Assembly: GCA_016699425.1 (NCBI GenBank) | Contig: CP064975.1 | Span: 859,957-923,956 of the forward strand | Origin: Candidatus Moraniibacteriota bacterium | GTDB lineage: Bacteria; Patescibacteriota; Minisyncoccia; Moranbacterales; UBA1568 | DNA: 64,000 nt | Direction: 5' to 3' | In this document: positions 3,783-61,568 of the stretch, in pieces | How the letters are laid out: the number at the start of each line of letters is the position of its first letter | How positions within the stretch are numbered: the stretch's first letter is position 1 | The notes under the pieces: generated by a model | The model's database searches: none | Told to the model about the DNA's origin: nothing | What the model saw: only the letters and a program-made list of their open reading frames with translations | Program-made: the position numbers and the translations under genes

Positions 3783-3857
3783 CTACTCACCTTCGACCAT
3801 CGACGAGTTTGTCGACCGGCGCGTCGCCTGAATCCCGCGTCATCGACGCGCATTTCT

Positions 3858-3892
3858 GACGCATCCCCCCCCCCCGGATGCGTCTTTCTTTT
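3858..3892. terminator. Rho-independent terminator with 11-C homopolymer loop, between convergent genes
   Basis: gacgcatcc-C11-ggatgcgtc followed by tttctttt. Confidence 0.6.
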
Positions 3893-3961
3893 AGATAAAA
3901 TAAGTGGGCTCTGCTACTTGCGTAGACAGAGCCCCTACTTCATGCGGCATTGCCGAGAAGC

Positions 3962-56649: not shown

Positions 56650-56676
56650 GAAAACGGGCTTTCACCCGTTTTTCGC
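56650..56676. terminator. bidirectional Rho-independent terminator downstream of RT
   Basis: aaaacgggctttcacccgttttt. Confidence 0.6.
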
Positions 56677-56716: not shown

Positions 56717-57589
56717 TCAAAGCTGATTCGCTATCTTCTGTTGTAGTTTCCTCCCATTCCCCCACCCAAGCATTCCGAGGTACGAAGCTACTGTTTCTTC
56801 TTTTCCTCCAGTGGCCTCCACTCGTCGCAGCATCCGCCGCTTCGTCACCGTCCGGAGTACTCGGTGATCCGAGAAATGCACCCAGCCGAGGAAATCCACT
56901 CCGCTTGCGACAGTTCTGATGAACACCTTGTCGGGGTGGAGCTCGAGTCGAAGATTGAGTCTGAGAAACGCATCCATCAGAATGAGTATATTTTTCAACT
57001 CATTTTCATTCTTGGAAAATACGACGAAATCATCTGCATACCGGATGTAATATTTCGCTTTCAGTTGCTGTTTCACAAACTGGTCGAGCTCGTTGAGATA
57101 GATATTGATGAGGAGTTGCGAAGTCAAATTGCCAAGCGGAAGCCCTCGGCCAGGTGTCCCCGAATCAAAGCTGGTGATGACTCTTTCCAGCAGCCAGAGC
57201 GTATCGGGATCAGCGATGTGTTTTTTGAGGATACCTATGAGCACACCCTGGTCGACCGAGGCGAAGCATTTCCTGATATCGCCCTTCAGCACCCAGACCG
57301 TCCGAGTGTGATTGTTCGAGACCTTCCGACCAAATGTCCGAAAACGATTGAGGGCTCGGTGTACTCCCTTCCCAATCCGACACGAATACGAATCAGCGAT
57401 GAAGGTCCGGTCAAAGCATGGATAGAGGGTACGATAGATCGCATGATGAAGGAGTCGGTCTCGCACTGACGCCTTGTGGATATCTCGCGGTTTCGGATCA
57501 TTCACCCTGAAGGCCTGGTATGGGCCGTGCGTATAGGTTCTCGTCTTGAGTGATTCATGGAGAGCGATCAGATGATCCATGAGATGCAA
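56717..57589 (-). CDS. DGR reverse transcriptase (track ORF from TTG; conserved N-terminal motifs continue in frame upstream to ~57725 through a G9 tract)
   Basis: YADD box (YIRYADDFVVF); DGR-specific LPLGNLTSQLLINIY; TYTHGPY; upstream in-frame IISIDNLLLAWTEFKRGKTKKR matches DGR RT N-terminus. Confidence 0.88.
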   Translation of the reverse strand: MHLMDHLIALHESLKTRTYTHGPYQAFRVNDPKPRDIHKASVRDRLLHHAIYRTLYPCFDRTFIADSYSCRIGKGVHRALNRFRTFGRKVSNNHTRTVWVLKGDIRKCFASVDQGVLIGILKKHIADPDTLWLLERVITSFDSGTPGRGLPLGNLTSQLLINIYLNELDQFVKQQLKAKYYIRYADDFVVFSKNENELKNILILMDAFLRLNLRLELHPDKVFIRTVASGVDFLGWVHFSDHRVLRTVTKRRMLRRVEATGGKEETVASYLGMLGWGNGRKLQQKIANQL

Positions 57590-57742
57590 TTCAAACTCCT
57601 GGACGTCTCTCTTCTTGGTTTTTCCCCGTTTGAACTCGGTCCAGGCGAGGAGAAGGTTATCGATGGAAATGATATCATCATAGGTGATATCTAATTTCCT
57701 TTTCTTCGCATATGCCTCAAATGACGCCCCCCCCCGAAGCTC

Positions 57743-58087
57743 TTGCCGATTCTTGAGAAACTAAAGATTGCATACGCTTTGTGGTATAGCTTTTTGCTTA
57801 TCCTACCAAAAACCCATCGGCATTCGCTCGGATCGAGAATTGATGATTTGTTTGTTGAGACAATCGAGGGAATAGCCACCGCAGCTTTTCTCTCGCCAGT
57901 GGAGAAACTTCCCTATGTGAAGTATGGGGTGAGAAAGCTCGACACCCTCAAGATACTCCTCATGATCCTCTGGGAGACCAAGTCACTGGATGACAAGAAA
58001 TATATCGCTCTTTCGGAGAGACTGAATGAGATAGGCAGAATGCTCGGCGGCTGGCAAGGACAGCTCCAAAAGAAAACTCTCCCGTAG
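57743..58087 (+). CDS. avd: DGR accessory variability determinant (Avd); TTG start right after C9 tract
   Basis: PKTHRHSLGSRIDD and C-terminal NEIGRMLGGWQGQLQKK match Avd four-helix-bundle family hallmarks. Confidence 0.8.
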   Translation: MPILEKLKIAYALWYSFLLILPKTHRHSLGSRIDDLFVETIEGIATAAFLSPVEKLPYVKYGVRKLDTLKILLMILWETKSLDDKKYIALSERLNEIGRMLGGWQGQLQKKTLP

Positions 58088-58106
58088 AAGGAGAGAATGA
58101 AGAGAC

Positions 58107-58260
58107 TGGCGAGACGGGGAACGCGAAGGCTCCATCATCGTTCCAGTTGTTGCCCGGGTTATCGTAGTAGGCATTCACCTGCTGCCCATCGTCGTTACGG
58201 TTCGATTCGAGGATGTTCGGGTTACCGTCGGAAATGTATATTCTGCCACCTATACCACCA
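58107..58260 (-). repeat. DGR template repeat (TR), Asn-codon rich
   Basis: ~150-bp copy of target 3' end; 19 of ~23 mismatches are TR-adenines (coding sense); reads NAYYDNPGNNWNDDGAFAFPVS. Confidence 0.85.
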
Positions 58261-58627
58261 CCCGTTGACTACTCGCCGGGTTGAATCGTATCCGGTATCT
58301 CCAATACCTTAGCAGAATAGACCAAGTATCTTCATTTTTTAACCCTTCAACTTGCTCAGGGTCATCCTGAGTCTTTTATCGAAGGATGAAGTGTCTGCAC
58401 AAGCCACTCTCTTTGAAGCCGTAATCGCAAAGACTCTCGGCTTGTGGATACTGGATTCGGCCGCGGAAAACCGTAGTCGCCCGCAGATTCGCTTACTACC
58501 AATTTCAGTATATCAAAATAATAAATTTGAAGAAAATGTAAACCCCGCACTACCGTTCGGTAAAATGCGGGGCCCAAGGACTAAGTATCAAGGGTCTAAG
58601 AGACCAAAGGTACAGAGTCCGAAGTGC

Positions 58628-59335
58628 TTATTGCGAGACGGGGAACGCGAAGGCTCCATCATCGTGCCAGTAGTGGCCCGGGTAAGCGCAGTAGGCAAGC
58701 AGCTGCTGCCCAACGACGTACCGGTACGAAGCGAGGAAGTCCGGGCTACCGTCGGAATCGATGATGGGTTCGTGGGGCACGGCGACGTAGTAGATGCCCC
58801 AGCGCTCCAGTTGCTCATCAGAAATCGCTTCCCGGATGAGGAGTGCCAGTTCACCGCGGAGGTCATTAGACTTCCCGTAGTCGCGCTCACCCCTTGCCCG
58901 TAGGTTGGCAGTAGTGCGCTCGGTATCGGTATCGAACTCCTTCTTGCCGAACAAGAGCGCAACGGTGTATTGCTTACCCGGCTCCAAGCGATGCTTCTCG
59001 TTGTAGTCGGGCTTGCCGAGGATATCTCTCGCCCATTTGGTGAAGTTCATCCCGCCAGTTTCGCCGTGTTTGGACCACTCCTCATTCGTCCAGCCACGGC
59101 CGGTCAGAGTGACGAGGATACGGCCGTGCTTGTCGGTCTTGTAAAGCGGGCCGAGGCCGAGGAGCTTGCGGAACTCGTCACGCGGCGGAATAGTTCCCGC
59201 CACGCAAGCTTCCGCGATATCCGCGATCCTGCCTTCGCCCAGGAGCTTATCTTGCCAGAGCTCCGGGGTGACGCCTTTTTGCAGGAGAGTGTCGTGAAGC
59301 TTCGTAACTTGCGGGAATGAAATAGAGGTGCACAT
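58628..59335 (-). CDS. DGR target (variable) protein, VR at C-terminus
   Basis: 235-aa ORF; C-terminal ...LLAYCAYPGHYWHDDGAFAFPVSQ corresponds to TR; small hairpin gggtctaagagacc and terminator downstream. Confidence 0.8.
   Translation of the reverse strand: MCTSISFPQVTKLHDTLLQKGVTPELWQDKLLGEGRIADIAEACVAGTIPPRDEFRKLLGLGPLYKTDKHGRILVTLTGRGWTNEEWSKHGETGGMNFTKWARDILGKPDYNEKHRLEPGKQYTVALLFGKKEFDTDTERTTANLRARGERDYGKSNDLRGELALLIREAISDEQLERWGIYYVAVPHEPIIDSDGSPDFLASYRYVVGQQLLAYCAYPGHYWHDDGAFAFPVSQ
58630..58785 (-). repeat. DGR variable repeat (VR)
   Basis: Aligned to TR with adenine-specific substitutions. Confidence 0.85.
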
Positions 59336-59595
59336 TGCAGTCTCCTAACTATGCTAGTCCTTGCGGGTAGCCGCTATAAGCTCTCGAAAGATTCGAGTTT
59401 GCCAGAGCAGAGAAAGGCCTAGGAAAGCCACTTTCTGCTCTGGCAAAAATCATGATTTTTAACGAACAATCCATTATACACCTTTTTCCTGTTTCTGTCC
59501 AGGGTAATATATTCGAGCGCGAAAAAGAGGCTTTCTAGAGCCTCTTACCACGAGCTACACATCTACTCGCTATCCGGCTAGTGCGTGCCACCTCG

Positions 59596-59670
59596 CCGGA
59601 TGAAATCGTACGCCGCGAGGGCAGCGGTGACGCCGAGGCCAGCCGAGATGTTGTTCTGCTTCTCGTAATA
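59596..59670. repeat. degenerate duplicate of trxB 3' end (encodes ...NNISAGLGVTAALAAYDFIRRGGTH*)
   Basis: ~87% identity to 60660-60728. Confidence 0.75.
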
Positions 59671-59697
59671 CGTCAAAGCCGCCACCGCGCTTACTCC

Positions 59698-60318
59698 CTA
59701 TGCTTCGCTCAGACTGAAGTTCATCAACATCTTCTTTATATCTTCATCGTTTTTTTCAAAACCCGGGCGATACATCACCGCTTCGGAATAATCGACATCA
59801 TCAAAGTAAGCAAGCTGCGAACGGAAATTCTTTTCATTGAACTCTTCGCCGAAAATACTCTCCGCTCTGTCGGCGATTTCCCGTAACGAATGCCTCGTCT
59901 CCAAAATGAAACAAATGTCGACATAATCCTTCCATTTCGCTCTCCTGCCAAGCGCGTAGGCCTTCATCGATGCGAGTGTGAGAAGCTCCGGCAATCGGGC
60001 GGTGTCATCCCAGAGGACGGGGTATTCGAGAGCGAACGGGTATCGGAGAAACGTGAGCTTCACGCCGTCCGTGAGTACCGTATATTCTTCCGGGGTATCG
60101 ACGAGCGTCCGGATATTCTTTCCGAAAGCGATGATGTCTCGCCGGAGCGCATCGGTACGAAGAGGTTCCGCGGTGAAGAGATCGAAGTCGATGGATGCGC
60201 GGTGTCCGATATGGAGAGCTATCGCCGTCCCGCCCACCAGACCGAAATCAGTGCGAAACTTCTGCAGAAGCGGAAGTAAGGTCTTCTGTTGTTCCGAAAG
60301 AATGTCAGCGTGCAGCAT
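59698..60318 (-). CDS. nucleotidyltransferase, AbiEii/AbiGii toxin family (type IV TA)
   Basis: LVGGTAIALHIGHRASIDFDLFT motif; start chosen at MLHADIL; track ORF extends to 60462. Confidence 0.7.
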   Translation of the reverse strand: MLHADILSEQQKTLLPLLQKFRTDFGLVGGTAIALHIGHRASIDFDLFTAEPLRTDALRRDIIAFGKNIRTLVDTPEEYTVLTDGVKLTFLRYPFALEYPVLWDDTARLPELLTLASMKAYALGRRAKWKDYVDICFILETRHSLREIADRAESIFGEEFNEKNFRSQLAYFDDVDYSEAVMYRPGFEKNDEDIKKMLMNFSLSEA

Positions 60319-60575
60319 GGCGGGCAAAGTAGAGATCGAAATAGTGAGCAATAGCGGGGCGGTAGTTATTTCTCTTGCCTTTCCTTTGGGAAAAATACAC
60401 TTCGGCCACCCTCTGTATCCCGAGCAGTGCAATAAGCGCCCGGACATCACGCCAATCCCCATAATTTAGGGTATGCTCGACAATCGAAGCTTCGGATAGG
60501 CGTGAGGCATCGTTGACATACCACACGAGGTGCGGTCGGGACTGGATAAAGGCACTCAACGCAGTACTCTGCCTC
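60305..60575 (-). CDS. putative cognate antitoxin/partner (90 aa) of AbiEii-like gene
   Basis: C-terminal 90 codons of ORF 60305..60886 from MRQSTAL; 10-nt spacing to toxin start; family not recognised. Confidence 0.4.
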
Positions 60576-60641
60576 ATATGTTTCTCATTTTCTTCCTTTA
60601 GTATAGCAGAAAATGAGAGATTTTTCCTTGGGAGCACCGCT

Positions 60642-61568
60642 CTATTTCTTCTTCCCCTTCCGAATGAAGTCATAGGCCGCGAGGGCAGCAGTGACACCGA
60701 GGCCAGCCGAGATGTTGTTCTGCTTGTAGGGTGCATCAGTCGCATCGCCAGTCGCAAAGATACCGGGTTTCGAAGTCGTTGCCCGGCGTGTATCGAGGAT
60801 GATTTCCCCGCGCTCATTGAGCTCGAGCAGACCCTGTGCAAACTCAGTATTTGGCACCATGCCGATCTCGACGAAGACACCATCAAGCGCGATGTCCTTC
60901 ACCTCAGCTGTCGTTTTATCCTGGTACCGGAGCGCTTCCACCTTGGTCTCACCGATGATTTCCTGGGTCACGGCATTATAGATGACACTCACTTTGGGGG
61001 AGGCAAGGATCTTCTCCTGCGTGATCTTATCCCCCTTCAGCTCGCCGCCCCGAACGAACAGGACGATCTCATTGGCATATGGCAACAGGTCCTCGACTGC
61101 TTCCAAGGCTGAGTTGCCACTCCCGACGACTGCGACTTTCCTCTGCTTGAAAAACGGCGCATCACAAGTCGAGCAGTAAACGACGCCGTGACCGTTGAAT
61201 TTTTCTTCTCCCGGAACAGCCAAGTGGCGGTGCCGACCCCCGGTCGCGACGATGAGGGTTTTCGTGTCATAGCTGCCCTGATCAGTCGTGATGCGGTAGC
61301 CACCGGTCGGGAGCTCGGTCAGACCCGTCGCGCGCTCACCGGTTTTTATCTCGAGCCCTTCCTGAGCCCGCAAATGCTTTTCCAGTGCCTGACCGAATTC
61401 CCAACCAGCGATTGAGACAGTCCCAATCCAGTTTTCGATCGAGGCCGACACGACGGACTGACTCAGGAAGTTTTCCGTGATGAAAAGCGTTTTGATTTGT
61501 TTCCGCGCGGCATACACGCCGGCAGCAATACCCCCTGGTCCCCCGCCCACGATAATACAGTCATACAT
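60642..61568 (-). CDS. trxB: thioredoxin-disulfide reductase
   Basis: GGGPGG FAD motif, CSTC redox centre, GSGNSA NADPH motif. Confidence 0.9.
   Translation of the reverse strand: MYDCIIVGGGPGGIAAGVYAARKQIKTLFITENFLSQSVVSASIENWIGTVSIAGWEFGQALEKHLRAQEGLEIKTGERATGLTELPTGGYRITTDQGSYDTKTLIVATGGRHRHLAVPGEEKFNGHGVVYCSTCDAPFFKQRKVAVVGSGNSALEAVEDLLPYANEIVLFVRGGELKGDKITQEKILASPKVSVIYNAVTQEIIGETKVEALRYQDKTTAEVKDIALDGVFVEIGMVPNTEFAQGLLELNERGEIILDTRRATTSKPGIFATGDATDAPYKQNNISAGLGVTAALAAYDFIRKGKKK

Follow-up and report, generated by a model that had tools for sequence, protein, structure and literature searches.

A very probably complete CPR-type diversity-generating retroelement, with a repeat tract beside avd, in a Candidatus Moraniibacteriota genome

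Positions 56717–59335 of a 64,000-nucleotide stretch of contig CP064975.1 (hereafter the window) very probably hold a complete, chromosomal diversity-generating retroelement (DGR) of the clade found in the Candidate Phyla Radiation (CPR, or Patescibacteria), in which a target gene with its variable repeat (VR) is followed by a template repeat (TR), an inverted avd gene and a reverse transcriptase (RT) gene. The contig, 1.2 Mb long, belongs to a metagenome-assembled genome of Candidatus Moraniibacteriota (CPR/Patescibacteria). A first-pass annotation of the same DNA had claimed a complete adenine-specific DGR, and this claim was upheld by the TR/VR pair, the RT, Avd and the VRs of relatives. 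An RT of the DGR clade, an adenine-biased TR/VR pair, a VR at the 3′ end of an open reading frame, avd and a post-VR hairpin are all present, together with the traits of the CPR-type B3 architecture, namely the order TR–(avd)–RT, an avd on the reverse strand and a CPR host. Judged by these sequence features, the cassette is typical of its clade. Read 5′ to 3′ along the minus strand, it consists of a promoter-like site, the target gene, a nested hairpin, a terminator hairpin, a spacer, the TR, a post-TR hairpin, avd as its reverse complement, a run of nine G residues and the RT gene (Table 1).

The repeat pair carries much of the evidence. TR and VR align without gaps over 125 nucleotides (nt) at an offset of 524 nt, as established with a repeat finder and in ungapped register; the pair first described was real, but the length of about 150 nt then given to each copy (58107–58260 and 58630–58785) was too great. 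Nineteen positions differ between the copies, and 17 of these fall on the TR adenines, which make up 32 of its 125 bases (one-sided Fisher test, p=1.8e-10). The earlier figure of 19 out of about 23 differences at adenines was not reproduced, but the adenine enrichment, on which the first-pass annotation had staked its claim, stands after the recount. The adenine sites lie mainly in AAC, AAT, GAC and GAT codons and lead to Asn→Ser/Asp/Tyr/His/Leu and similar changes, among them the Tyr, His and Leu outcomes that had been proposed at the outset. In codon reading, the TR gives SDGNPNILESNRNDDGQQVNAYYDNPGNNWNDDGAFAFPVS and the VR gives SDGSPDFLASYRYVVGQQLLAYCAYPGHYWHDDGAFAFPVS. As also proposed, the VR lies at the 3′ end of the 235-residue gene. 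The final 33 nt of the two copies are identical and GC-rich, resembling an initiation of mutagenic homing (IMH) sequence, and the copies diverge only past ...CTCGC.

Related loci from other genomes and metagenome contigs, designated by L-numbers, were compared with the window. When the window TR is set against the VRs of relatives, the mismatches at adenines amount to 13/13 in L001, 23/23 in L015 and 19/20 in L009, and the TR/VR pairs of relatives themselves give 9/9 in L002 and 10/11 in L106. In pairwise comparisons among the window, L015, L001 and L009, the VR positions corresponding to TR adenines are 25–50% identical and the remaining VR positions 97–100% identical, with 78–89% identity over the 300 coding nt that precede the VR. 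The comparison of related contigs that had been suggested as a check on the first-pass annotation therefore places VR divergence at the TR-adenine sites. Seen between genomes, this is, as far as alignments tell, the pattern left by a conserved template that repeatedly overwrites the VR. Adenine bias might instead be produced by selection at the protein level, for example by relaxed selection on Asn codons, and since the variable positions lie at the surface of a binding domain, positive selection on them is plausible. The changes in the three relatives follow the nucleotide, however, and not the codon; the non-adenine sites of the VR are better kept than the rest of the gene, as overwriting by the TR predicts; and a non-coding copy, the TR, adjoins the RT and Avd. 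Selection without RT mutagenesis is therefore given almost no credence.

The RT contains an RVT_1 domain (PF00078, 1.8e-23), and both the LGNLTSQ motif and the YADD box that were first noted can be read in its translation. Among solved structures, its best match is the Bordetella phage enzyme bRT (8ub7_A, E=4.4e-41), with the alignment starting at residue 9 in either protein; the next match follows at E=8e-19, 70 bits lower, and retron and group II intron enzymes lie well behind bRT. Public names point elsewhere. The gene product is called a 'group II intron reverse transcriptase domain-containing protein' by NCBI, and its relatives at the Joint Genome Institute (JGI) are called 'retron-type reverse transcriptase'. 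These names, together with a score of 140 bits for TIGR04416, would fit an intron- or retron-type enzyme beside an unrelated partial gene duplication that merely resembles a TR/VR pair. Yet no NCBIfam RT model comes near its cut-off (300 for TIGR04416), and the retron and defence-associated RT (DRT) models score lower still. The protein lacks a maturase/X or endonuclease domain, and a search of Rfam returned sub-threshold matches only and no intron RNA. The enzyme also carries a GxxxSQ motif, from which the motif of intron-type RTs differs. Finally, duplication followed by drift would not give adenine-specific mismatches, and this alternative is in practice refuted.

The first-pass annotation had also recognized an Avd homolog downstream of the RT. 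The homology holds, with 44.8 bits for PF22296 (cut-off 40) and 3.5e-16 for PHROG 3206, 'Avd protein of DGR', but the annotation had missed that avd lies on the plus strand, opposite the RT, TR and target. The order target–TR–(avd)–RT with an inverted avd is found in L002, L004 and about 70 metagenome loci as well; in a set of 80 metagenome loci whose RTs are 58–68% identical, all those extending far enough beyond the RT have it. As its first codon, avd has TTG in 29 of 68 loci; elsewhere, this position is mostly occupied by a non-start codon, often another Leu codon, and 19 of the 68 loci offer no canonical in-frame start for avd.

The target, annotated by NCBI as a hypothetical protein, has no match in Pfam, NCBIfam or PHROG, and a profile search of PDB sequences returned only chance-level PrgH matches. 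Its family comprises 37 close members, and a profile search extends it to 1402 clusters, formed at 50% identity. When 20 members are aligned, the columns that vary are those of the adenine-containing TR codons, and the flanking ...GAFAFPVSQ is constant. The structure prediction that had been recommended was made with AlphaFold2 from this 20-sequence alignment (mean predicted local distance difference test, pLDDT, 84.7; predicted template modelling score, pTM, 0.78). The model consists of a helical N-terminal part of lower confidence and a well-defined core from residue 65 on, which may be C-type-lectin-like over residues ~65–232; residues 194–234, encoded by the VR, form the C-terminal beta-hairpin and the last strand. 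In the model, the diversified residues would thus stand on the C-terminal beta-hairpin of a putative, divergent C-type-lectin-like domain, and on this ground the product is most likely a putative variable ligand-binding protein. A different target class was observed in L106 (99–193 and 571–665), a syntenic DGR ortholog that also adjoins murA and whose RT is 73% identical: its target belongs to the classical ...NDNWWFAGLR type, and targets therefore seem to have been swapped within this RT lineage.

The region just 3′ of the VR had been described as containing a hairpin and a terminator, and both were confirmed (58620–58578 and 58573–58542). As DNA, the post-VR hairpins fold with z=-3.3, and 0 of 200 shuffled sequences folded as well. 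The 90 nt following the stop codon include the nested hairpin and the terminator. They are identical at 89–90 of 90 positions between DGR-adjacent targets (the window and L015) and the remote targets of L009 and L010 at the uvrC/uvrA locus, versus only 86–89% identity between the same loci in the coding sequence upstream, and the sequences diverge right past the terminator. This element is likely to serve in target recognition for the integration of complementary DNA (cDNA), as the counterpart of the post-IMH hairpin of Bordetella phage BPP-1. A second target is present in the same genome: a paralog outside the window (IPJ68_01590, P0003) is 84% identical to the target. In relatives (L009–L014 and L001), the corresponding gene sits between uvrC and uvrA, far from any RT, and the VR of the remote target is explained by the same TR. 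Just past the terminator, the promoter-like site could start the TR transcript, with the presumed 5′ part of the TR RNA following it. This VR-to-TR spacer contains nested stems. It also yields a weak Rfam match to 'RT-7' (58384–58440, minus strand; 21.4 bits, gathering score 116.8, E=0.035), which is probably due to chance.

A second conserved module lies on the other side of the TR. Its hairpin, CTCTCC/GGGAGAG, starts 14 nt past the TR, is followed by TTTTCTTTT and holds in its loop the stop codon of avd, read on the other strand. The module is shared by 53 related loci, each with the pyrimidine motif, a GC-rich stem of at least 7 bp whose sequence varies, and a U tract. In a loop-trimmed alignment of 45 of the 53 loci, the helix is 96.5% paired, a percentage inflated by the choice of the 5′ arm for its complementarity, which leaves the covariation unaffected: both sides change in 6 of 7 pairs, and 62 double-change cells were counted versus 13 in shuffled alignments, with 0 of 500 shuffles reaching so high a count. 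In slid registers, pairing falls to 37–66%. By its sequence, the module resembles an intrinsic terminator at which the template RNA would end. Its counterpart in Bordetella is a spacer of 140 nt that serves to prime cDNA synthesis.

Taken together, these features suggest a working scheme. The TR would be transcribed on the minus strand, probably from the promoter just past the target terminator, into an RNA that would end at, or be structured by, the conserved hairpin and U tract 14 nt past the TR. By homology to Bordetella bRT–Avd, the RT and Avd would copy this RNA into cDNA and misincorporate opposite template adenines, and the cDNA would replace the VR at the 3′ end of the target, a step to which the pattern of differences testifies. 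Two conserved sequences would guide homing, namely the 33-nt GC-rich end common to TR and VR and the 90-nt hairpin element, which would also flag the second, remote target between uvrC and uvrA.

Several observations weigh against an intact and active DGR. Two TR/VR differences fall outside adenines, T58197→G (silent) and G58178→C (Val→Leu). The last 33 nt contain no IMH/IMH* difference between TR and VR; donor and recipient may be told apart by their flanking hairpins instead. Avd reaches 62.4 bits with NF033474, below the cut-off of 80. A Foldseek search of the target model against the PDB gave a best E of 0.71, which is not significant, and offers no structural match for the putative C-type-lectin-like core. 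One remote-target allele, P0005, recurs unchanged on 13 contigs of related samples. The TR of L015 (9117–9241) differs from the window TR at 8 sites, all in its 3′ half and all A in both the window TR and the outgroup L002, and the L015 template thus appears to have been adenine-mutagenized itself, by self-homing or template erosion. Lastly, a canonical in-frame start is missing at the N-terminus that homology defines for the RT, whose expression here is accordingly not assured: no ATG, GTG or TTG lies in frame between the upstream stop and codon 41, the earliest in-frame starts (TTG 57589 and ATG 57580) come about 40 codons late, and NCBI calls only 287 residues.

The start of the RT gene was compared across loci. 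An out-of-frame ATG (57711–57709), at the site where orthologs start (MKKLHNAYQNIIS...), opens the short frame MRRKGN* with its stop at 57693–57691 and an A4 run at 57703–57700; a −1 shift on A_AAA_G at this run would yield MRRKRKLDITYDD... The same layout of out-of-frame ATG, A run and, two codons further on, TAG was found in L002 (positions 1500–1600; ATG AGA CAT ACA AAG AAA AAA AGA AAT TAG) and in L106–L110 (...GGG GAA AAA AGA AAT TAG), which are separate assemblies with RTs 74% and 73% identical to that of the window, respectively. In 14 of 57 related loci with a poly-G tract, a stop separates the tract from the RT N-terminus, followed in 13 of the 14 by an ordinary in-frame start; 20 are open and have their start downstream; in 15, the sole start lies at the tract or upstream of it; and 8, including the window, have none in frame. 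In total, 23 of the 57 RT genes lack an ordinary start between the tract and the N-terminus. The layout suggests −1 recoding or non-canonical initiation of the RT. A homopolymer error in this one assembly may be the cause of the frameshift seen here; long-read homopolymer error as its sole cause was rejected because L002 and L106–L110 share the layout.

These data also bear on whether the cassette is a recently inactivated remnant with an untranslatable RT, its start being out of frame, and a frozen VR. Such a remnant would account for the absent start up to codon 41 and the N-terminally truncated NCBI product, and the two non-adenine substitutions of the VR could represent drift after the last homing event. 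Against it stand the remaining ~330 RT codons, which are intact with all motifs kept, and the start layout itself, which is kept in L002 and L106–L110, lineages with VRs that diverged at adenine sites; a dead gene common to them would not remain intact. In addition, the TR still has its 32 adenines, and the lack of an ordinary start in so many related RTs looks like a property of the clade. Inactivation is therefore considered unlikely, and recoding or non-canonical initiation is favored over a dead gene because the rest of the RT is intact and the lineages keep diversifying.

A further feature of the complete DGR lies in the ~50 nt that separate the divergent starts of avd and the RT, which contain a homopolymer tract. 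A G/C run beside the start of avd is a trait of nearly all related DGRs (L002, L004 and L016–L110). Only one other G/C run of at least 7 nt occurs in the 64-kb window, and in 417 kb of related loci, all 52 runs of at least 8 nt adjoin the avd start. In L071, the RT lies at a distance of 234 nt, and the run has remained beside avd. The window's other run (C11 at 3865) forms the loop of a terminator-like hairpin (3855–3895; GACGCATCC-C11...GGATGCGTC, then TTTCTTTT) between convergent genes. Of 79 loci with a tract, 65 have poly-G, 8 have (GA)n, 3 have (TGGC)n and 3 have another repeat, including a CTGATTG repeat, (GT)n and (AT)n; the repeat units are thus 1, 2, 4 or 7 nt long, none a multiple of three. 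Tract lengths range from 5 to 16, with a peak at 9–10. Length variation among near-identical contigs rests on three pairs: L023 and L029, identical over 500 of 500 flanking nt, carry G9 and G10; L106 and L107 differ over 3.1 kb solely by G10 versus G13; and L049 and L053 carry (TGGC)11 and (TGGC)9.

In these respects, the sequence looks like a slippage-prone contingency tract. An upstream ATG whose frame reaches the tract is present in 67 of 68 loci and in frame with avd in only 16 of 68; on the opposite strand, this ATG reads as a conserved His codon of the RT, which blurs any test of the tract as avd coding sequence. On the RT strand, a −10-like TAnnnT directly follows the tract in 12 of 59 loci, so that the tract could be a spacer of the RT promoter in some of the loci at best. 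Pairing of the poly-G tract with the pyrimidine arm of the post-TR hairpin, as in pyrG-like antitermination, was also considered and was dropped, as loci with non-G repeats showed no supporting pattern. A literature search by title and abstract found no paper linking DGRs with a homopolymer, a simple sequence repeat (SSR) or a phase-variable tract. We tentatively propose, as a possibility that we hold to be rather less probable than its absence, that the DGR is gated by this hypermutable tract, with slippage tuning or switching Avd, the RT or both, perhaps in combination with a recoding layer at the RT. If so, only a subpopulation would run targeted mutagenesis, a stochastic switch being placed on a hypermutation machine, and the second layer in this subclade, −1 recoding or non-canonical initiation, would keep RT levels low.

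Table 1. Coordinates of the retroelement and adjoining features in the window
Feature	Position	Strand	Remarks
Terminator-like hairpin past RT gene	56651..56672	-	
DGR reverse transcriptase	56717..57712	-	homology to bRT from ~57690 (KLDITYDDIISIDNLL...)
Homopolymer tract	57727..57735	.	C9 on avd strand, G9 on RT strand; ends 7 nt before avd TTG
avd	57743..58087	+	114 residues, TTG start; opposite RT, TR and target; between TR and RT
Post-TR module	58066..58108	-	pyrimidine motif CAGTCTCTTCATT, hairpin CTCTCC/GGGAGAG (58095-58077), U tract
Template repeat (TR)	58233-58109	-	125 nt; 32 A; rich in AAC/AAT/GAC/GAT codons
VR-to-TR spacer	58234..58514	-	presumed 5′ part of TR RNA; conserved in close relative L015
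Promoter-like site	58515..58542	-	TTTACA-16-TATTTT; 9/12 consensus match only; extended -10-like TGATATACT just downstream
Terminator-like hairpin	58542..58573	-	CCCCGCA...TGCGGGG, then T-rich tail; would end target transcript (intrinsic-type)
Nested hairpin	58578..58620	-	directly past target stop codon; part of ~90-nt post-VR element
Variable repeat (VR)	58757-58633	-	codons 194-234 of 235-codon target open reading frame, 3′ end
Target gene	58628..59335	-	235 residues; NCBI IPJ68_04820, 'hypothetical protein'
Promoter-like site upstream of target	59473..59501	-	TGGACA-17-TATAAT; 11/12 match, consensus only

Some further observations concern the surroundings of the cassette. Between the target promoter-like site and the start codon lies a 21-nt inverted repeat (59398–59447; 86% complementary, 8-nt loop). 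Upstream, between trxB and the DGR target, a gene for an AbiEii-type toxin (59698–60462) is accompanied by a small DUF6922-like gene. Copies of a 66-nt direct repeat, which corresponds to the 3′ end of trxB, bracket the pair (91% identical; 59596–60725). The pair is absent in the relative L015; on account of this absence, it looks like a recent insertion.

As a DGR, the cassette adds one more to the thousands catalogued in CPR bacteria; it is well delimited and has both an adjacent and a remote target. Its target family, with some 1400 sequence clusters, is without a domain model. The side observations matter more than the DGR itself. The conserved repeat tract, the conserved terminator-like 3′ end of the template RNA in place of the Bordetella 'spacer', and the systematic lack of ordinary RT starts would offer concrete handles on the regulation of DGR activity in the largest natural reservoir of DGRs.

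Comparison with known systems places the cassette among those of its host group. According to Wu et al. (Wu et al., 2018; PMC5758913), 90% of the DGRs in the CPR show the B3 architecture, which hardly occurs elsewhere, and according to Roux et al. (Roux et al., 2021; PMC8144416), CPR DGRs fall in clade 2 and have targets without recognizable domains, which probably carry novel C-type-lectin variants. As described in the two papers, CPR B3 DGRs resemble the present one in gene order, inverted avd, host group and chromosomal location, and their targets resemble the present one in being small and lacking recognizable domains, a signal peptide or a membrane segment. The searchable text of neither paper mentions a homopolymer or SSR tract, a post-TR terminator hairpin or a start-codon problem of the RT.

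The variable proteins of solved fold are more distant. Compared with Mtd (1yu0) and TvpA (2y3c), the target has no sequence similarity, no Foldseek match and no Pfam match to the FGE-sulfatase or DUF1566 families, and the VR in the window, of the class ...NxWNDDGAFAFPVS, ends in GAFAFPVS rather than in the usual GFR-type sequence. The element of BPP-1 (mtd–avd–TR–brt) is matched in its RT, which is homologous to bRT (E=4e-41), in its Avd, in adenine-specific transfer from TR to VR, in a VR at the 3′ end of its target gene (of lectin fold in BPP-1 and of putative lectin-like fold here), in the GC-rich repeat end and in the post-VR hairpin. In contrast to BPP-1, avd is inverted here and stands between TR and RT; the element is cellular and not phage-borne; the RNA downstream of the TR is antisense to avd and apparently cut short by the terminator-like hairpin; an IMH/IMH* difference in the last 33 nt is absent; and a second, remote target is present.

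For the repeat tract, the nearest parallels are SSR contingency loci, such as the (TA)n tract of hif in H. influenzae, the poly-C tract of fim in B. pertussis and the poly-G tracts of porA and opc in N. meningitidis. As in these loci, the tract occupies a fixed place in a short divergent control region, its length differs between otherwise identical sequences, and different repeat units are found at the same place in different lineages. Unlike in these loci, a fit to the spacer between −35 and −10 elements is seen in only part of the loci, those with TAnnnT. The hosts, moreover, are uncultured CPR bacteria, and control would be exerted on a mutagenesis machine, not on a surface antigen.

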